NCBI GenBank assembly: GCA_964629735.1
Contig: CAZVQX010000002.1
Location: 5,493 to 69,492 of the forward strand
Direction of reading: 5' to 3'
Source: an uncultured Muribaculaceae bacterium
GTDB taxonomy: Bacteria > Bacillota_I > Bacilli_A > RF39 > UBA660
Length of the DNA stretch: 64,000 bases
The position numbers were made by a program, and so were the translations under genes. Shown here piece after piece: positions 10,253-21,817 of this stretch. The notes beneath the pieces are model-generated. The model ran no database searches. It saw nothing but the letters and a program-made list of their open reading frames with translations, and was not told the origin of the DNA. Each line of letters starts with the position of its first letter. The first letter of the stretch is position 1.

Positions 10253-12175
10253 TTACAATAATTCATTTATTAATTCAACAATATTTTCTTTTGAACAACC
10301 ATTCATTTTCATTTTATTAGCACTATCAACTGATTTATTACTTAAATCATTAAAACCTAAAACTTTTATATTATTATTATATTTATATAATAATTGTTTT
10401 AAGGCTGAAGGATAACCATGAAAAACATATATAATGTTTTTACACTCATCAAATAAATTATGTTTTTCTTTTAAAATGGATATATCATAAATATATATTA
10501 GCTTTATTTTATAATTACTTTCTTTACAAACTGATAAACACTCTTTTAATTGATATATGCCTGTTGCTACTAATATAATATCCGGATTAACATAATTTTG
10601 AAAAATTAAATATTTATTCGTGATTAACTTGCTTGCTTTTTTTTTGCTTAATTCAATTAATTCGTGTTTTGTTATAACTATTACATTAATAAAATTATAT
10701 ATTTTATTAACATTTTTTAAAGTCAATATTAGTGAATAATAATCGATTGGGAAAAATACATTACAGTATTTATTTTCATCAATTAATAGATTATTCAAAA
10801 TTTCAGGATTTTGATGAGAATAACAATTTTCTTCCCAAAGACTAGTTAATAATAAATTTAACGAATGGTAACCTTTTTTAGTTTCATATATAAATTTTTT
10901 ATATTGGCTAATTATACTTAAAACAATCGAAGCAAATCCTTCATATGATATAAAAATTCCATTATTACCACCTCTAATATGACCAATTAAGGCAGTTAAA
11001 CAAACATTTTCATTTAATAATTCAAAAATATTTTCTCTATATTTAAGTAATTCTCCTAATTTATTTGAACCTAACTCATCAGGTGAAAAAATTACAAAGT
11101 TTTTATCTAATTTAATTATTGTTTCAAAATAATCAACGCAACAACTTAAGTTATTTGAATATTCATTTTTAAAAGAATAATCCGGATATTTTTTAAATTT
11201 TATTTGATTATAAAAAAATTTATTAATTTTATTTTTCTTAGGAACATATAACTTATTGTTAACGTTTTGTTGACATATATTATACTTTTTTAACCAATCA
11301 ATTACTATTTCTTTTTTTATATTATTAGCTTTTATTTTTAATAATGGATTTTTATGTGAACATAAATTATTTTCAATATTTATATAATTATTACATAAGC
11401 CGGTCATGCCTTTTGGTGTTTTTAAAATAATAATTGAATTTTTATCATAATTCGTTTTACTCAATAATTTATTTAATATTTTTGTGAATTGTAAATGATT
11501 ATTATTAACAATAAAAACTTTATAACCTAAACTATTAAAATGTTTTTTTAAATCTTTATTACTCATTTTAGATAATAAAGATTGACTCCCCATTTTATAG
11601 CCATTTAGATTAATAATTGGCAATATTTTTCCTTTTGACTTTATTATTTGATTTAGCTGCCACGAAGATGAAATAGAACCGGTCTCAGCTTCACCATCGC
11701 CGATTATAGGAATAACCAAAACATCATTTTTAAGGGCAATTCCATACGCTATTGGTAATGAATAACCTAATTCACCACCATCATAAAAAGTATATGGATA
11801 ACTTGCATTAATTTCACTACGATAACCTGTAGATGAACCAAATTGTTCTATTAATTTATTTATCTCTTTGTAATTTAATGGATATGTTTCTGTAAATTGT
11901 GACAAATAATTATTAGCTAAATAAGCATTACCGGCATGACCAGCACCTATTATTGTTACTATATTTAAATTGTTTTTAAAAGCAACATAATTTAAACTTG
12001 AATAAATAAAATTAATATTAGGTACAGCACCCCAATGACCAACTGAATATTTTTTTAATTTAATATTATTTAAGTTTTTGCCTATACTACCGCCTTCAAC
12101 ATACATTGTTGCCAGTGATATAAAATTGGCTAAATTATAATATTTTTTTATTATTCTAATATCTCGTCGGATCAT
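10253..12175 (-). CDS. Phosphoketolase (XFP) family protein. It is a divergent, short paralog of 640 aa with a TPP-binding N-terminal domain.
   Basis: Strong match to the XFP N-terminal signatures: VGHWGAVPNINFIY (GHWGTTPG), GAGHAGNAYLA (GPGHGGPA), YDGGELGYSLPIAYG (EGGELGY), IIGDGEAETGS (GDGEAETG), ILPIINLNGYKM. It is about 185 aa shorter than canonical Xfp, and an active-site His (HEGGELGY) is replaced by Tyr. Confidence 0.65.
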   Translation of the reverse strand: MIRRDIRIIKKYYNLANFISLATMYVEGGSIGKNLNNIKLKKYSVGHWGAVPNINFIYSSLNYVAFKNNLNIVTIIGAGHAGNAYLANNYLSQFTETYPLNYKEINKLIEQFGSSTGYRSEINASYPYTFYDGGELGYSLPIAYGIALKNDVLVIPIIGDGEAETGSISSSWQLNQIIKSKGKILPIINLNGYKMGSQSLLSKMSNKDLKKHFNSLGYKVFIVNNNHLQFTKILNKLLSKTNYDKNSIIILKTPKGMTGLCNNYINIENNLCSHKNPLLKIKANNIKKEIVIDWLKKYNICQQNVNNKLYVPKKNKINKFFYNQIKFKKYPDYSFKNEYSNNLSCCVDYFETIIKLDKNFVIFSPDELGSNKLGELLKYRENIFELLNENVCLTALIGHIRGGNNGIFISYEGFASIVLSIISQYKKFIYETKKGYHSLNLLLTSLWEENCYSHQNPEILNNLLIDENKYCNVFFPIDYYSLILTLKNVNKIYNFINVIVITKHELIELSKKKASKLITNKYLIFQNYVNPDIILVATGIYQLKECLSVCKESNYKIKLIYIYDISILKEKHNLFDECKNIIYVFHGYPSALKQLLYKYNNNIKVLGFNDLSNKSVDSANKMKMNGCSKENIVELINELL

Positions 12176-13767
12176 AACATTATTGAATTATCAAAATGAG
12201 TATACCATAGCGGTCGATAGCACTCCCATGATTGTGGACGACATTTTTTATCTGAGTATATTTTTTCTATATATTTTCTTAAAATTAGATAATACTCTAG
12301 GTCAACAGCTTTTTCATTTAAGATTTTCATATCTTTTTTACTATGTATTTGATATATATTAAAAGTTGGGAAATGTTTGGTTATATCTTTAAAATCAATG
12401 ATAAAATTAATAATATCATCAATCGGATCTAAACCTAATACAAATAAATAATTAGTAGTAATTCCAATACTATTACAGTATTTAATTGCTTCTTTATAAT
12501 CAATAATTGTCACTTTTCTTTTTATTTTGTGCAAAATCTGTTCACGATTATTTATACATTCTACTGTAAAACTAATCATTAAATTATCAATTTTTGTTTT
12601 TACTTTTTTGAGATCCTCTTTATCAATTAATTGAGAGCCTATATAGTGAATTACACCATTAAATCCTAATTTTTCACTAACTGCTTTTATTAATAATAAA
12701 TGATTTATTAGTGATACAGAATTTTCAAAACAACCCGTACAAATTGTAATATATTCTAAATCATCCATACTTTCGTTATTTATTATTTTTTTGAAATAAT
12801 TTGTTAACGATTCTTCGTCTTCTAGTATAATTTCTTCATTATTTACAATAAGATTATTCGGACAAAATAAGCAACCAAAACAATTACTTCTTTGATTAGA
12901 ATTAATTGTTAAAGATTTATTATTATTTCTAAAATAACTAGATGAACAATCATCATTTTCTAATTCGTTGAGCTCACCAATTTCTAATTTATCAAAATAA
13001 ATTCTATTGCCTTCTTCTATAAAGACAGAATTAGGATTATTATACAAACCTAATTTAAACAATTTAGGATAATCATTAAATTTTAATTCAAACCTAACTC
13101 TTGTTGTATTTACACTACTAGTATTAATACCAATCATATTTAAGTAAATTAAGATTATATCATAAAGATGAACATCATATTTTTTACTAATTTTTAGTAA
13201 CTCATCATAACTATATATAATATTTTGAAAATCATATAATTGAATTGCTTTTTCCATTATCTTATTTATAAAATCTCTTTTTTTATTAGTATAAGCTTTT
13301 CTATCTAATTCATTAGATTGTACGATTTTAACTTTTATTTCTTCATATTCTTTTGCCATGCTAAAATGCGTATTTAAATAATCGCGAAAATAAATTGATT
13401 CTTTATAACGAAGACTGTTTTTTTCAACAATATGAATGTAATGAGTTCGATTATTCTCTGGCCCTTTTCTAAGTAAATACTCCCCCTTTACACCATTATC
13501 ATCGCGAAAATCATAATCTTCTAATTTTTCAAAAATGGGAATAAACTGGCGGGCATCATCTAATTTATCAACCGTAATTAACATATCAATAATGGGTTTG
13601 GCTTTTATACCAATTATTGATGTACTACCAATATGTTCAATCTCAACATCATGATCGTTTAAATATGTTTTTAGTAATTTTTTTTCTTTTAAAAATTCTT
13701 TTTCCCATATTGGATTATAATCGTCTAACCTTACTTCATTTTTAGATAAACCTATTATTTTTTTCAT
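12172..13767 (-). CDS. GrpB (UPF0157) nucleotidyltransferase-fold domain fused to an uncharacterized C-terminal domain of about 360 aa with a CxxCxxC triad
   Basis: N-terminal 170 aa: IEHIGSTSIIGIKAKPIIDMLITV...HYIHIV...YFRDYL matches the GrpB family. The C-terminal part has NCFGCLFCPNN and ICTGCFENS but no recognizable family. There are 4-nt overlaps with both neighbouring genes. Confidence 0.6.
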   Translation of the reverse strand: MKKIIGLSKNEVRLDDYNPIWEKEFLKEKKLLKTYLNDHDVEIEHIGSTSIIGIKAKPIIDMLITVDKLDDARQFIPIFEKLEDYDFRDDNGVKGEYLLRKGPENNRTHYIHIVEKNSLRYKESIYFRDYLNTHFSMAKEYEEIKVKIVQSNELDRKAYTNKKRDFINKIMEKAIQLYDFQNIIYSYDELLKISKKYDVHLYDIILIYLNMIGINTSSVNTTRVRFELKFNDYPKLFKLGLYNNPNSVFIEEGNRIYFDKLEIGELNELENDDCSSSYFRNNNKSLTINSNQRSNCFGCLFCPNNLIVNNEEIILEDEESLTNYFKKIINNESMDDLEYITICTGCFENSVSLINHLLLIKAVSEKLGFNGVIHYIGSQLIDKEDLKKVKTKIDNLMISFTVECINNREQILHKIKRKVTIIDYKEAIKYCNSIGITTNYLFVLGLDPIDDIINFIIDFKDITKHFPTFNIYQIHSKKDMKILNEKAVDLEYYLILRKYIEKIYSDKKCRPQSWECYRPLWYTHFDNSIML

Positions 13768-14582
13768 TTGTTCCTCCTCATAATTAATTTTTTTATTTCT
13801 TCTTCAGGAATATTAACTCCAAAAAAATTGTTGCTTTCATAATTGTGAAAATCACTACCACCAGTCATTATTAATTTGTGACGAATACATATTTCTCTTA
13901 ACGCTTGTAACTCTTTTTTGGTGTGATATCGATAATAAACCTCTACTCCACCTGCACCTTGATTTTTTATTTTGATAATTTCATTTTCTATATTATTATC
14001 TTTAGCTAAACCAGAAAAAAACGGATGGGCAATCACTGCTACTCCACCGGCGGCTTTTATTATATTAATAGCTTCAGTTATACTATATTTGTTAATTGGT
14101 ATATAATAATGGGCTTTTTTACCTATGTATTTATCGTAAGCCTCTACTACTTGTGATACATAACCGTTAGCTATCATGGTTTTAACAATACTTTTTTTAT
14201 CAACAATTCCATCATGACTATTATTTTTTACTTCGTCTAAACTAATAAAAATACCATTATTATTTAATAATTCAATAACTTTATTACATATATCTATATT
14301 ACTCTCACGTAATTTTAACATTTTACCCTCAATTTTATCAATGTCTTTTATATTATAACCTAAAATATGTAATTTCCGATAATCGGTCGTTATTTCAATT
14401 GCTGGTATAATGTTTAATTTTAATTCTTCGGCCAATTTTTGATATTGATTATAGCCAATAATAGTATCATGATCAGTTATTGCTAGATTAATTATACCTA
14501 ATTGCTGACAAGTTGTTATAATTGTTTCTGGCTCTAAATCGCCATCCGAATAGGTACTGTGAATGTGAAAGTCTACTTTCAT
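13764..14582 (-). CDS. PHP-domain phosphoesterase (TrpH/YciV RNase AM-like)
   Basis: MKVDFHIHSTYSDGDLEPETII...AITDHDTIIGY...LHILGYN...IAHPF. Strong AGGAGG SD 8 nt upstream. First gene of the cluster. Confidence 0.75.
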   Translation of the reverse strand: MKVDFHIHSTYSDGDLEPETIITTCQQLGIINLAITDHDTIIGYNQYQKLAEELKLNIIPAIEITTDYRKLHILGYNIKDIDKIEGKMLKLRESNIDICNKVIELLNNNGIFISLDEVKNNSHDGIVDKKSIVKTMIANGYVSQVVEAYDKYIGKKAHYYIPINKYSITEAINIIKAAGGVAVIAHPFFSGLAKDNNIENEIIKIKNQGAGGVEVYYRYHTKKELQALREICIRHKLIMTGGSDFHNYESNNFFGVNIPEEEIKKLIMRRNK

Positions 14583-14703
14583 ATAATCACCTCCTAAAAG
14601 TACGTATAATAGCCTAGAAAATTATATTACTAGTTTTAAATAAATATTACCTTATTAATTATTTTATTAATTTTTTTGATTATACTATTTAATAGGTGAT
14701 GGT

Positions 14704-15282
14704 ATGAATCTTGATAAATTAAAAAAAGAATTAGAACAATGTCGCTTATGCGAAGAAAAATTTGGGTTTCGACCTAATCCAGTTTATTTTGGTAATCAAA
14801 ATGTAAAAATTATGCATATATCTCAAGCCCCTTCTAAAAATGTTCACTTAACTAAAAAATCATTTAATGATATTAGTGGTCAAAAATTAAAATATGAATG
14901 GTATCAAATAACAGATGAAGATTTTTATAATCCTAATAATTTTTATATTACTTCAGTCGGGCACTGTTATCCAGGTAAAAATAGAAAAGGCCGTGATAAT
15001 AAACCTCCTAAAATATGTAGAGATATATGGTTAAAAAAAGAAATTGAATTAGTTAACTGCCAATTATATGTAATAGTTGGTAAAGAAGCAGCTGATTTTT
15101 TATTCCCTAAAAGCAACTTTAAAGAACTAGTTTTTAATAATAATATATTTAATAATAAAATAGCATTAGTTCTTCCCCATCCTTCACCTGTTAATATTAA
15201 ATGGTTTTTGGATAATCCTGAATTTGAAAAAACAAGAATAATTGAGATAAGAGCAATAATAAAAGAAGTATTACAACTATAA
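14704..15282 (+). CDS. Uracil-DNA glycosylase superfamily protein (family 4/5-like, with an atypical motif A)
   Basis: N-terminal CRLC. SQAPS sits at the position of GE(A/G)PG motif A. LPHPSPVN matches motif B (HPSP.N). AGGTGATGG SD. Confidence 0.45.
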   Translation: MNLDKLKKELEQCRLCEEKFGFRPNPVYFGNQNVKIMHISQAPSKNVHLTKKSFNDISGQKLKYEWYQITDEDFYNPNNFYITSVGHCYPGKNRKGRDNKPPKICRDIWLKKEIELVNCQLYVIVGKEAADFLFPKSNFKELVFNNNIFNNKIALVLPHPSPVNIKWFLDNPEFEKTRIIEIRAIIKEVLQL

Positions 15283-16104
15283 TACTTCTTTATTTAAACG
15301 TTCTCTAACTTCATTCCAAATCTCCGGCTTAATATCTTCTAATCGTTCTGATAGTCCTAATTCATTCGCACGTTTTTTTACACCACGAATATATATACCT
15401 GTATAATCACTACCTGTAAGTAATGCTTTAGTTAAAACTTCACCCCATTTAATTGTTATATTATTTAATTCACTATTTTTAATTGAATTTATTGGTAAAT
15501 TAATATCATATTGCAGATGAATAAAATTTGGTTGCCAGTGATTATCTATAAATTCAATAATCATTAGACTAGTACCTTTTATTCCGTCAGCAGGTAAACC
15601 GGTGGAACCTGGATTAAAAAATCTAATATTGTTTTTTGAAAATAATAACTGATTATGTTGATGACCAAAAATAACATATTTATACTTAAAGTCTTTTTGC
15701 AAGTATGGAACTTCTTTAAATTTATGAGTAACGTATATTTCAGGGCAACCATCAATATTAACAACTGTTGAACTAGGCATTCTTTTTATATAATCTAAAT
15801 CACTTTGAGTTAACTGTTTATAAGCTAATAATAATGGAGCATTATTATTGTCCAGTGACCATTCACCTTGATTATTAAAATGATAATTAATGAAATAATC
15901 TTCTCGATTACCTTTTACTAACCAATGTTTATATTCATTATTTTTTAATTGAATAAAATCTAAGACCTCTCTTGAGTGAGGTACATCACTAATAAAATCA
16001 CCACACCAAACAATACCATCAAAATTATTATGATCAATATATTCAAAACATTTTTTCAAAGCAAAAATATTCCCGTGAATATCACTTAATACTGCTAACT
16101 TCAT
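15277..16104 (-). CDS. Calcineurin-like metallophosphoesterase (YfcE-like)
   Basis: LSDIHGN, CGDFISD, GNRED, FGHQHN motifs. GAGGAGG SD. Convergent with the UDG-like gene, overlapping it by 6 nt. Confidence 0.75.
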   Translation of the reverse strand: MKLAVLSDIHGNIFALKKCFEYIDHNNFDGIVWCGDFISDVPHSREVLDFIQLKNNEYKHWLVKGNREDYFINYHFNNQGEWSLDNNNAPLLLAYKQLTQSDLDYIKRMPSSTVVNIDGCPEIYVTHKFKEVPYLQKDFKYKYVIFGHQHNQLLFSKNNIRFFNPGSTGLPADGIKGTSLMIIEFIDNHWQPNFIHLQYDINLPINSIKNSELNNITIKWGEVLTKALLTGSDYTGIYIRGVKKRANELGLSERLEDIKPEIWNEVRERLNKEVL

Positions 16105-18906: not shown

Positions 18907-19752
18907 TCAATATTTATCATTTAAATCTAAGTTATAAGTATTAATAGCAATACCTAAAACAAAAACATAAGATAAAATATACGCCCAGATCATAAGGACC
19001 ATAATCGATGATAAACTACCATAAAAAATATCATAATTAGCTATATTACTGGCATAATATGAATAGATTGAAGTTGCTACTAACCAAGAAAAAGTAGTGA
19101 AAACAGCACCTTTTCTAGTATTTTTACTTGTAACACTAATATCAGGAGCGATTGCGTATATAAAATTAATTGTAAAGAAAATAATAACAAAGCTAATTGG
19201 CCATTTTAATAATACAAATATTGAATACAATAGTTTTACTGTTTCTTTATTACTAATAAAGCTTAATAATAATTTTATTAAAACATTACCAAATGCTAAG
19301 ACAATTAATATAAACAAAAATAAAAATACTAATACAAATGATAAAATAAAAGCTTTTATTCTTCGTTTAATTTTAGATGATTCATCAATTTGATATAGTG
19401 TATTTGAAGCAATAATAACTGAATATAAGCCATTAGAAGCAATTACAAATCCTATTATTATAAATAGGCCAACATTAAAGTTAAAACCTTTACCCGATAT
19501 AATAGGTACTAATATCTTACTTACTTCTCTAGGAAATGTTCGATTCATAAAATTAATAAATGAAGCAATTGATATATTAAAAAAAGATGCAAAAAACACA
19601 AACAATGTAATTATGGGAACAATTGATAATACAAGTGAAAAGGCCAGATTACCTGGTAATATTTCCATTTCTGGTTTTTGAAATACGGTCGATAATTTTT
19701 GGCCTTCTTTAGTAGTAAAAATTTTTTTATTAGTCAATTTTTTGATCTTCAC
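18907..19752 (-). CDS. YihY/BrkB (ribonuclease BN-like) family membrane protein
   Basis: 281 aa, six predicted TM helices, typical YihY layout. Overlaps the GGDEF gene 3' end by 23 nt. Confidence 0.65.
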   Translation of the reverse strand: MKIKKLTNKKIFTTKEGQKLSTVFQKPEMEILPGNLAFSLVLSIVPIITLFVFFASFFNISIASFINFMNRTFPREVSKILVPIISGKGFNFNVGLFIIIGFVIASNGLYSVIIASNTLYQIDESSKIKRRIKAFILSFVLVFLFLFILIVLAFGNVLIKLLLSFISNKETVKLLYSIFVLLKWPISFVIIFFTINFIYAIAPDISVTSKNTRKGAVFTTFSWLVATSIYSYYASNIANYDIFYGSLSSIMVLMIWAYILSYVFVLGIAINTYNLDLNDKY

Positions 19753-21817
19753 TTTCTTTATTATCGCGCATATCTAATGTTGCTTCAATAATAGCATCAT
19801 CTACTGTTTTTATAGCGTCTACTATCATACTATAACCAATTGCAGCACCAAACCCGTGCGCTAATGACTTAAACTCTTTATTTAATTTACGAATATAAGA
19901 AACAACTTCTTTTTCTTCATGACCAACTAAATAAACAAGAAATTCATTACCATCAGTTCTTATAATATCACTGTTTTCAGTTTGATTTTTTATTAATATA
20001 TTAGCAGCATCTTTAATAACCATATCGCCTTCGCTATGACCATAGTTATCATTAATATATGCAATATTATTTAAGTCAATAATAACAATAGTTTGCGGAT
20101 ATACTTCACTCTCATCCCATATTTCTATATTATCATTTAAATAATTTCGATTTTTCAAAGATGTTAACAGATCAATATATTTTAATTTTTCTTCTTTTGA
20201 TAAAACGTTTTTGACTTTTTTCTTATCTTTACGAACAGATGTAAATAAAGCTGTAGTTGCACCAATAATTATAATTAATGATGTAAGAACAACTAAACTT
20301 TTAATTATAATTGGTTTTTTATCAATGTTAAATAGATTATAATACGCATCGTTTTCAATGCTTTTATTATTAACAAATGATAAATAAAAGTTAAAGAAAT
20401 CATTAAAGACTTTATTATCTTTTATATCCCTTGCTACAAAATTATAATTAGTTTTTAATTGTTCTTCATAATTAACTTGATAGTTTTTTAATTGATTATT
20501 TAAAAAATATTTATATACATTAGAATCAATAACAATAATTGAATCTTTGTTTATATTTTTTATTAATTCTAAAACATTATTAAATGATTTAACCTTTAAT
20601 TTTTGTTCCAACAAATAATTATTAATAACATCACCTTTTAATGTTAAAACTTCTACATTTTGTAATGAATTAAGTGAATTAATAATTAAATTGTTTTTAA
20701 TATGACTAACAACTACAAATGAGTTTGAATAAACTGGAATAGTGTTATAAATATCCATATCATATTCATTGATGCTAAGATTATTCATCATTAAATCTAG
20801 CTTATTACTATTAAAATCTTGTAACATCATTTTAATTGATTTATAACTCTTATAATTTATTTCAATATTAGCCATTTTAGAAAATGCTTTTAAAAATTCA
20901 CTGTTATAACCCTTTAATTTATTATTAATTAAAGTATCATATGGTGCATTTTCAACAAATCCATATGTATAACGTTTACTTCTAAAATCAACGCGTGATT
21001 TTTCCATAGTTTTGTTATAAGTAAAATAACTATTAGCTAAATGATTATTGTATTTACTTTCAAACTTTTCTTGTGACCATTTATCATAATATTTTTTCAA
21101 AATATTATTTAATTTATCTGTCTTTCCTAATGTTAAAACAATATACTTGTTCATTTCTGTTATGTTATAAGCAATATTTAATTTTGTTTCAATAATTTTT
21201 TCTAAATACATTGTTTTGGGTACAATTATAGCATTAATTGGATTAACTGTTTGATTAGTATTATCTTCACTTTCTATTTGAGCAGGCATCATATCATTAA
21301 ACATCTTATCTATATCATCATAAGTTTTAAAAACGTTATTAAATGAACCTTTTAAATAAGTATTAACAGTATCTACTTCTTTACTTAAAACCCCAATGGT
21401 TAATCCTTTTATTTCTTTTAAATCTTGAAATTTTTGTTTATTCCTAGTAACAATAACATATTCATCTTTATATAATAAAATATCGTTTTTAGTCAATTGA
21501 TCAACAACATTAAAAGAATATTCTGGAATATCTTTTTCATTATATTGAAAGGATACTTTATTGAGAACCAAACCTGTTGTATTTTCTAAACTTTTTAAAA
21601 AATCAAAGAAAACACCATTACCACCATAATTAAATATTGGAACATCGTTAATTAACCCAATATCAATTACACTATTTTTATTTTTATCAATCCATTGTTT
21701 TTCTATTAAGTTAAGCGTTGTTTTTTTGTCTTCTTTATTATATATAATATATATACTTCCGGCTAATAAAACTAATATTATAGCACTGATAATAATCATT
21801 ATTTTTTTATTTTTCAT
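19730..21817 (-). CDS. Sensor protein with an extracytoplasmic tandem solute-binding-like region flanked by two TM helices and a cytoplasmic GGDEF domain in which GGDEF is replaced by DGNEF
   Basis: GGDEF-domain signatures IIDLNNIAYINDNYGHSEGDMV and IIRTDGNEFLVYL. TM helices at residues about 5-25 and about 508-530. The region between them resembles SBP_bac_3-type binding domains. Confidence 0.7.
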   Translation of the reverse strand: MKNKKIMIIISAIILVLLAGSIYIIYNKEDKKTTLNLIEKQWIDKNKNSVIDIGLINDVPIFNYGGNGVFFDFLKSLENTTGLVLNKVSFQYNEKDIPEYSFNVVDQLTKNDILLYKDEYVIVTRNKQKFQDLKEIKGLTIGVLSKEVDTVNTYLKGSFNNVFKTYDDIDKMFNDMMPAQIESEDNTNQTVNPINAIIVPKTMYLEKIIETKLNIAYNITEMNKYIVLTLGKTDKLNNILKKYYDKWSQEKFESKYNNHLANSYFTYNKTMEKSRVDFRSKRYTYGFVENAPYDTLINNKLKGYNSEFLKAFSKMANIEINYKSYKSIKMMLQDFNSNKLDLMMNNLSINEYDMDIYNTIPVYSNSFVVVSHIKNNLIINSLNSLQNVEVLTLKGDVINNYLLEQKLKVKSFNNVLELIKNINKDSIIVIDSNVYKYFLNNQLKNYQVNYEEQLKTNYNFVARDIKDNKVFNDFFNFYLSFVNNKSIENDAYYNLFNIDKKPIIIKSLVVLTSLIIIIGATTALFTSVRKDKKKVKNVLSKEEKLKYIDLLTSLKNRNYLNDNIEIWDESEVYPQTIVIIDLNNIAYINDNYGHSEGDMVIKDAANILIKNQTENSDIIRTDGNEFLVYLVGHEEKEVVSYIRKLNKEFKSLAHGFGAAIGYSMIVDAIKTVDDAIIEATLDMRDNKESEDQKID

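Follow-up and report, generated by a model that had tools for sequence, protein, structure and literature searches.

The gene described here joins two protein families in one polypeptide and is paired with a third. Enzymes of the radical S-adenosylmethionine (SAM) superfamily (PF04055), of which LipA, MqnE, RlmN and viperin are the nearest characterized members, share a partial (β/α)6 TIM-barrel with three cysteines following strand β1, canonically spaced as CX3CX2C. Published variants of this motif occur in ThiC (CX2CX4C), HmdB (CX5CX2C), QueE (CX14CX2C) and PhnJ; CX2CX2C is not among them (PMC4389238). For GrpB (UPF0157) proteins, the sole published role is that of a folding aid for CoaE (PMC2765170). 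Xylulose-5-phosphate/fructose-6-phosphate phosphoketolases (XFP) are thiamine diphosphate (ThDP) enzymes of about 790–825 aa. We analyzed a stretch of 64,000 nucleotides from an uncultured Muribaculaceae bacterium (the window; positions 5,493–69,492 of contig CAZVQX010000002.1, assembly GCA_964629735.1; GTDB lineage Bacillota_I, RF39, UBA660), in which a GrpB domain is fused to a cysteine-rich region that we assign, from its sequence and modeled fold, to a divergent clade of radical SAM proteins. We propose, with a probability of roughly 0.7, that this bifunctional GrpB::radical SAM enzyme catalyzes the radical SAM step of a nucleotide- or sugar-derived small-molecule pathway together with a ThDP partner encoded by the next gene. 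The coordinates of all features are collected in the table below.

The first-pass annotation of this locus, made from the sequence alone, recognized the GrpB domain and found no family for the ∼360 aa that follow it. The reading frame and the motifs that it quoted are all present where it placed them, IEHIGSTSIIGIKAKPIIDMLITV at residues 43–66, NCFGCLFCP at residues 295–303 and ICTGCFEN at residues 342–349 of the 531-aa protein. The C-terminal region (∼350 aa, Cys-rich) was modeled with AlphaFold2; both this model and the conservation counts given below rest on 78 diverse homologues. The model has a predicted local distance difference test score (pLDDT) of 94 and a predicted template modeling score (pTM) of 0.92. 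A structure search, as the annotation had recommended for this region, returned radical SAM enzymes: Foldseek's 15 top matches among PDB structures all belong to this superfamily, as do 18 of the 21 matches with E ≤ 0.001. The best match is LipA (5exj, E 4e-6), the others include MqnE, SkfB, SuiB, HydE, viperin-like enzymes, anSME, BioB and PFL-AE, and target-normalized TM-scores among them reach 0.57. Sequence identity to these structures is low (17–18% for MqnE, 11–14% for LipA). The Pfam profile PF04055 aligns to residues 297–451, its start coinciding with the Cys loop, and sub-threshold matches to it recur in six of nine family members (best E 3.5e-6). In addition, two plasmid-borne homologues are named ‘radical SAM protein’ by the Prokaryotic Genome Annotation Pipeline (PGAP), and the canonical CX3CX2C motif is found at the same alignment position in three homologues (P0070, P0080 and P0131) and in most of the distant relatives. 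The modeled fold, the recurrence of PF04055, these canonical-loop intermediates and the PGAP names together indicate that the C-terminal two-thirds of the protein is a genuine but divergent member of the radical SAM superfamily. Thus, the region that had seemed to be without a family falls into a common superfamily, whereas its specific family is indeed uncharacterized.

Uncharacterized radical SAM families are common. The present one comprises 337 representatives at 50% identity, of which 105 have E ≤ 1e-30 with the isolated-domain profile; nearly all are stand-alone proteins of ∼355 aa, homologues carry only the name ‘hypothetical protein’ in the public sources checked, and neither Pfam nor NCBIfam holds a family-specific model for the domain. 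Sequence searches of the C-terminal region against the PDB gave chance matches only, with a single sequence as well as with a 9-sequence profile (plakoglobin, uL23), and the 78-sequence profile gave only non-significant alignments to RlmN. When the canonical-motif relatives were compared with named radical SAM subfamilies, the matches were weak and scattered (CofH, PylB, viperin, QueE and a tungsten-cofactor maturase). No NCBIfam model for lipoyl synthase matched the window protein, although LipA is its top structural match; further defining features of LipA are a CX4CX5C auxiliary-cluster motif near its N-terminus and an RSSY serine ligand near its C-terminus. Likewise, the viperin model NF038283 (viperin_w_prok) does not match the window protein, and two distant relatives reach 16–18 bits against a cutoff of 180. 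We therefore describe this family as a putative new and unannotated radical SAM clade, set apart from the rest of the superfamily by a contracted cluster-binding loop, scores below the Pfam threshold, the lack of a curated subfamily, an N-terminal subdomain of its own and a conserved pairing with a ThDP enzyme, to which the window adds a rare fusion with GrpB.

The cluster-binding loop follows the β1 strand of the model (E106–109) and its cysteine triad is almost invariant, with C296 and C299 conserved in 78 of 78 homologues and C302 in 77; the aromatic residue ahead of the last cysteine, F301, is kept in 74. The first-pass annotation had pointed to a Cys-triad module, possibly of Fe-S type, with a radical-SAM-like loop of the wrong spacing, and both observations hold, since the triad is conserved and the aromatic residue is retained in a CX2CX2C rather than a CX3CX2C motif. 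A HMMER alignment places the family loop onto CALECKFC of RlmN with a one-residue gap, its E-value being non-significant and its register informative. Judged from conservation and register, the loop is a radical SAM loop shorter by one residue, and the triad very likely binds an Fe-S cluster. Because the superfamily includes accepted members whose spacing deviates from the canonical one (PMC4389238), a CX2CX2C motif excludes the status of a canonical loop and not homology to the superfamily. As in QueE, HmdB, ThiC and PhnJ, the departure from CX3CX2C hampers bioinformatic recognition (PMC4389238). The window loop differs from these variants in that its first spacer is one residue shorter, whereas those of the QueE and HmdB type are lengthened, and in that it lies at the canonical N-terminal position of the barrel, unlike the motifs of ThiC and PhnJ.

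Several further patterns are placed on the barrel by sequence and secondary-structure register only. The ICTGCFEN motif occupies the end of β2, where many radical SAM enzymes have a glycine-rich GGE-type motif. Its T344 and G345 are conserved in 69 and 72 of the 78 homologues, whereas C343 is found in 21 and C346 in 57; the two cysteines are thus clade-specific and do not form a family-wide metal site, so that the motif no longer belongs to the Cys/metal module with which it had initially been grouped. Besides TGCF on β2, the conserved elements are T401-x-E403 on β4 and I-x-G445-x-D447 on β5; K416 and G445 are invariant and R408 is nearly so. By inference, the β2, β4 and β5 patterns together with K416 and R408 resemble the GGE-type, ribose and GxIxGxxE SAM-binding motifs.

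The barrel is preceded by a family-specific subdomain of ∼110 residues, predicted to consist of two helices and a β-rich part and ending in an ENDDCxSSYFR motif, in which Y278 and R280 are conserved in 76 and 71 of the 78 homologues, respectively. A Foldseek search with residues 180–290 gave no significant match among solved PDB structures (best E 0.88). The window protein also has four extra cysteines, C274, C343, C346 and C516. The complete set occurs in 10 of the 78 homologues, all in the subclade of the window protein, and a family-wide auxiliary Fe-S cluster built from these residues was rejected on this ground. In this lineage alone, they may form a second site for a metal or an Fe-S cluster.

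The second conserved element of the locus is the ThDP enzyme. Like xylulose-5-phosphate/fructose-6-phosphate phosphoketolases, the partner encoded in the window has the XFP_N, XFP and XFP_C domains, and by comparison with PDB 9cd3 it conserves the GDGEAETG...NLNGYK ThDP motif and keeps the GHWG, SYE.FA and HQNP stretches. Unlike them, it has 640 aa and falls below the model cutoffs, scoring at most 365 bits against NCBIfam phosphoketolase models whose cutoffs are at least 777. The same is true of all copies linked to the radical SAM family that were tested (158–590 bits), suggesting that they constitute a subfamily of their own, whose substrate probably differs. The two types coexist in one locus (L008), where an XFP gene at 1906–4230 passes the NCBIfam cutoff (1206 versus 962 bits) and the paralogue linked to the radical SAM gene, at 9032–10990, fails it.

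The pairing was surveyed in 83 non-redundant loci, which originate from metagenome-assembled genomes of Bacilli and Clostridia, many Actinomycetota, Sorangium, Treponema and others. In 80 of these loci the radical SAM gene has an XFP-like gene within 7 kb, which follows directly downstream in 58; other enzymes intervene between the two genes in 20. Two members with canonical loops depart from the pattern. Downstream of P0070 (L091, 6001–8621; apparently archaeal, with EF-1α and wyosine genes nearby) the XFP-like protein is replaced by a split ThDP enzyme that resembles sulfopyruvate and phosphonopyruvate decarboxylases; the partnership of radical SAM and ThDP enzymes thus persists even where the ThDP enzyme comes from another family. 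P0080 (L093, 3126–6763) has no ThDP neighbor. Its upstream neighbor is a 353-aa protein with a weakly nucleotide-cyclase-like N-terminus and a NUDIX domain, and directly downstream is encoded a 341-aa protein in which a P-loop kinase-like domain is joined to GrpB. We found no description in open-access text of a radical SAM enzyme paired with a ThDP C-C lyase, with a phosphoketolase or with GrpB.

The N-terminal part of the fusion is a GrpB domain, as the first-pass annotation had stated without reservation. It matches PF04229 with 146.3 bits (cutoff 25.5) over profile positions 2–159 of 159, and PDB 2NRK with E 1e-24, the EHIGSTS...AKPIID signature aligning in the same pattern; both this signature and the RTHYIHI motif are intact. 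The match to the family, which includes the C-terminal domain of Mycobacterium tuberculosis CoaE, is thus full-length. The domain in the window neither stands alone nor is fused to CoaE; it is joined to a radical SAM enzyme. The earlier view that these two are the usual forms proved too narrow, since the homologue search returned many other fusion partners: GNAT (most often), NUDIX, PHP (P0022, 560 aa), pyrophosphatase, APH, RNase III, and nucleotide kinases of the cytidylate, adenylate and uridine types. The fusion described here is nevertheless as unusual as was supposed, there being three GrpB fusions among the best 150 family representatives at 50% identity.

The search for other long GrpB proteins, also recommended at the outset, found seven further fusions of the same kind (P0002–P0008) with 35–41% identity to the window protein. 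Because of these homologues, and because two independent metagenome contigs encode the identical fusion protein, an assembly or frameshift artefact was ruled out as the cause of the fusion. In neighbor-joining trees, the only kind computed, the fused forms group in a single radical SAM clade, a split locus branching among them, and their GrpB parts fall into three groups. A single origin of the fusion is therefore not clear-cut, and the association of radical SAM and GrpB appears to be old and to have been rearranged more than once. In P0007 and P0008, the fused GrpB domain has lost the AKP part of the signature and carries ETSG or VGRG instead. The P0007 locus (L002, 4522–5046 and 8001–9569) also retains a second, ordinary stand-alone GrpB gene, given which the fused copy of P0007 may be degenerate or specialized.

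In the window, the fusion gene lies in a four-gene operon (PHP, GrpB::radical SAM, XFP-like, HD) that, on the evidence of its gene junctions, is translationally coupled: the stop codon of the PHP gene overlaps the start of the fusion gene (ATGA), the stop of the fusion gene overlaps the start of the XFP-like gene in the same way, and a gap of 31 bp separates the latter from the HD gene. The PHP protein scores 138 bits with the NCBIfam model for nucleoside-bisphosphate phosphatase (cutoff 400) and 135 bits with that for RNase RNM (cutoff 375). The HD gene is not conserved across the other loci at E 1e-5. Neither the window nor eight related loci yielded a riboswitch or any other RNA regulator. 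The flanks of the operon consist of ordinary cell-envelope, transport and repair genes, and the sensor protein with a GGDEF domain encoded 6 kb from the operon does not match the profiles of the GGDEF-type proteins found in related clusters.

Table. Features of the GrpB::radical SAM locus and its surroundings (positions in the window)
Feature	Coordinates	Strand	Basis or remark
GrpB::radical-SAM-like fusion gene, 531 aa	12172..13767	(-)	single open reading frame, ATG start; stop codon within coordinates
GrpB (UPF0157) nucleotidyltransferase-fold domain, residues 12-173	13249..13734	(-)	Pfam PF04229 E 1.1e-42; PDB 2NRK
Family-specific N-terminal subdomain of the radical-SAM-like module, residues 180-290	12898..13230	(-)	AlphaFold2 pLDDT 94
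Radical-SAM-superfamily barrel core and C-terminal tail, residues 291-531	12175..12897	(-)	Foldseek against PDB; PF04055 24.3 bits
Contracted cluster-binding loop C296-F-G-C299-L-F-C302 (CX2CX2C)	12862..12882	(-)	conservation, spacing survey, RlmN register
ICTGCFEN, end of β2, putative GGE-type position	12721..12744	(-)	placed by secondary-structure register
Extra cysteine C274	12946-12948		
Extra cysteine C343	12739-12741		
Extra cysteine C346	12730-12732		
Extra cysteine C516	12220-12222		
Divergent phosphoketolase-like ThDP enzyme, 640 aa	10253..12175	(-)	XFP_N, XFP and XFP_C matches
PHP-domain phosphoesterase, first operon gene	13764..14582	(-)	Pfam PHP E 1e-11
HD-domain phosphohydrolase, probable last operon gene	9559..10221	(-)	Pfam HD E 3e-5
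Promoter-like site 5' of the PHP gene	14679..14708	(-)	10/12 consensus matches; consensus match only
Terminator-like hairpin and T-run directly after the HD gene	9532..9549	(-)	
Two tRNA genes, strand opposite to the operon	9332-9402 and 9413-9483	(+)	
Family-4-type uracil-DNA glycosylase, divergently transcribed	14704-15282	(+)	
YfcE-like metallophosphoesterase	15277-16104	(-)	weak PADLOC PDC-S10 match
SBP_bac_3-GGDEF sensor protein, 695 aa, 6 kb from the operon	19730-21817	(-)	

The gene context differs between lineages. GrpB and PHP both accompany the radical SAM–XFP pair in 15 of 26 low-GC loci (with GrpB fused in three), and PHP is found with the radical SAM gene in 19 of the 26; in the 57 high-GC loci, where the ORF (open reading frame) calls are approximate, GrpB occurs in two and PHP in none. 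Recurrent neighbors are an MR/MLE enolase-superfamily protein (44 loci), a SAM-dependent methyltransferase, Sua5/YrdC, HAD, NUDIX and HD. A GGDEF-type gene lies directly upstream of the radical SAM gene or overlaps it in six Firmicutes and 12 actinobacterial loci (e.g., L030, 7324–7992, and L047, 6907–7983), and the two groups of GGDEF-type proteins are related (hhalign probability 95%). In a Nocardia locus (L090, 11840–12466), a GGDEF gene annotated by PGAP lies between the radical SAM and phosphoketolase-like genes. An adenosine deaminase gene was found in a single locus.

Larger clusters are found on plasmids and in actinomycetes. A stand-alone homologue (41% identity, ‘hypothetical protein’) is present on 30 mobilizable Clostridium perfringens plasmids of 70–75 kb, in a co-directional cluster of ∼15 kb (L088, NZ_CP075936.1, 1579–16246; also L087) that includes ABC-2 exporter genes, a BtrH-N protein, an adenylate-forming enzyme, an acyl carrier protein (ACP), a HAD protein, an amino-acid adenylation protein, a phosphoketolase-family protein, a PHP protein and a methyltransferase. 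By its gene content this looks like an uncharacterized gene cluster for a secreted metabolite; nothing relevant to it was found in open-access text. The Streptomyces avidinii cluster contains genes of the creatininase and phytanoyl-CoA dioxygenase families, a methyltransferase, Sua5/YrdC and an APH-family kinase. The Nocardia farcinica cluster contains a GGDEF protein and two further radical SAM proteins, with a nucleoside hydrolase and a pyrF paralogue nearby, neither of which was seen in another locus.

The proposed pathway would run as follows. C296, C299 and C302 would bind a [4Fe-4S] cluster, the fourth iron of which binds SAM, and reductive cleavage of SAM would yield the 5'-deoxyadenosyl radical. 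The sugar moiety of a nucleotide or sugar phosphate would lose a hydrogen to this radical or form an adduct with it, so that a carbonyl arises or becomes accessible. Next, the ThDP enzyme could attack beside the carbonyl, resulting in C-C cleavage or transfer of a C2 unit, and the fused GrpB domain would carry out nucleotidyl transfer onto the same substrate or an intermediate. PHP and HD would strip phosphates. The product, most likely a small molecule derived from a nucleotide or a sugar, would in the larger clusters elsewhere also undergo acylation, methylation and export. The nucleotide theme is suggested by the recurring nucleotidyltransferase, GGDEF/cyclase, NUDIX, HAD, HD, PHP and kinase partners and by the deaminase, nucleoside hydrolase and pyrF of single loci, and the biosynthetic character by the tailoring and export genes of the larger clusters. 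The canonical-loop members also speak for such a pathway, as they keep partners of these kinds (ThDP for P0070; NUDIX and kinase-GrpB for P0080).

A number of points weigh against this proposal. The substrate, the product and the order of steps are inferred entirely. At the level of the family assignment, PF04055 scores 24.3 bits with the whole protein and 25.2 with the isolated domain, below the gathering score of 29.5, and no NCBIfam radical SAM model matches the window protein. The window protein and the core family (CxGCxFC) depart from the strict CX3CX2C spacing, and no report of CX2CX2C in a working radical SAM enzyme was found in open-access text. We also found no demonstrated reaction for any GrpB protein, and because its one published role is to assist the folding of CoaE, the GrpB family offers no mechanism to borrow. 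Finally, the tailoring and export genes of other clusters are absent from the window operon, which may thus make a core metabolite only or have a different role.

Among the alternatives, the one that survives best is an anti-phage or antiviral system, in which a viperin-like radical SAM enzyme would make a toxic or chain-terminating nucleotide, and GrpB, kinase, PHP, NUDIX and GGDEF proteins would supply, sense or detoxify it. Viperin-like enzymes are indeed among the structural matches of the barrel, and the weak viperin_w_prok matches of the two distant relatives point in the same direction. The partners are rich in nucleotide kinases, NUDIX proteins and nucleotidyltransferase folds, and in this they resemble prokaryotic viperin neighborhoods; moreover, some loci lie beside a type I restriction-modification system or a Cas3 gene, and homologues occur on mobilizable plasmids. 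However, none of the four operon proteins matches any component in PADLOC-DB 2.0, no phage homologues were found, and the operon in the window is flanked by cell-envelope and transport genes. Many loci contain ACP, adenylation enzymes, methyltransferases, ABC exporters and LysR or GntR regulators, which are of the metabolite biosynthesis type, and we know of no defense system that uses a ThDP C-C lyase. We consider an antiviral role unlikely.

The near-obligate one-to-one pairing with the phosphoketolase-like protein, together with the adjacency of the genes and the overlap of stop with start codon, could also mean that the radical SAM protein is a maturase or activase of its neighbor, installing a radical or a modification on it as PFL-AE does on PFL or anSME on sulfatases. 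The fold matches include both PFL-AE and anSME, and the N-terminal subdomain could serve for protein docking. Such a role is harder to reconcile with the lineage that has exchanged the partner for a split ThDP decarboxylase of unrelated architecture, and with P0080, which has no ThDP neighbor at all; a shared metabolite fits these cases better than a shared protein target. Furthermore, enzymes intervene between the two genes in the 20 loci noted above, and the accessory enzymes all act on small molecules or nucleotides. We regard a maturase as very improbable. Least probable of all is a barrel derived from radical SAM enzymes but devoid of radical chemistry, in which CX2CX2C, a classic ferredoxin-type spacing, would hold a structural, redox or sensing Fe-S cluster or zinc in a non-radical enzyme or a binding module of GrpB: it would account for the loss of the canonical spacing and the absence of a published precedent for an active CX2CX2C enzyme, for the sub-threshold Pfam score and for TGCF at the GGE-type position of β2, but not for the retention of F301, of the ribose-type and GxIxGxxE-type patterns, and of K416 and G445, both invariant, nor for the canonical-loop members that are interspersed in the family and have gene partners in common with it, and most family members are stand-alone proteins, so that the domain is no accessory to GrpB.

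A broader form of the proposed radical SAM–ThDP pathway is more tentative, and we give it somewhat less than even odds. It holds that the radical SAM clade functions with its contracted CX2CX2C loop, and that it and a dedicated ThDP enzyme are the two core enzymes of a pathway, as yet undescribed, for nucleotide-derived small molecules, which is spread over Bacillota, Actinomycetota, Myxococcota, Spirochaetota and, apparently, archaea, as well as C. perfringens plasmids, and that the fusion in the window provides the first functional context for GrpB/UPF0157, namely nucleotidyl transfer coupled to radical chemistry.

If this assignment is true, hundreds of sequences with a conserved CX2CX2C loop in the canonical place would widen the rule by which radical SAM enzymes are recognized, and would explain why these proteins are named ‘hypothetical’. 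A radical SAM enzyme and a ThDP C-C lyase that are almost always encoded together, even after an exchange of the ThDP family, make up a compact and testable two-enzyme core. GrpB/UPF0157 proteins are widespread, and their links to radical SAM, PHP, NUDIX and nucleotide kinases give a nucleotide-centered hypothesis for this family, as well as a small operon suited to testing it. Medical relevance is possible as well, since the core is found in an exporter-linked cluster on 30 C. perfringens plasmids and in many actinomycetes, and its product may be bioactive.

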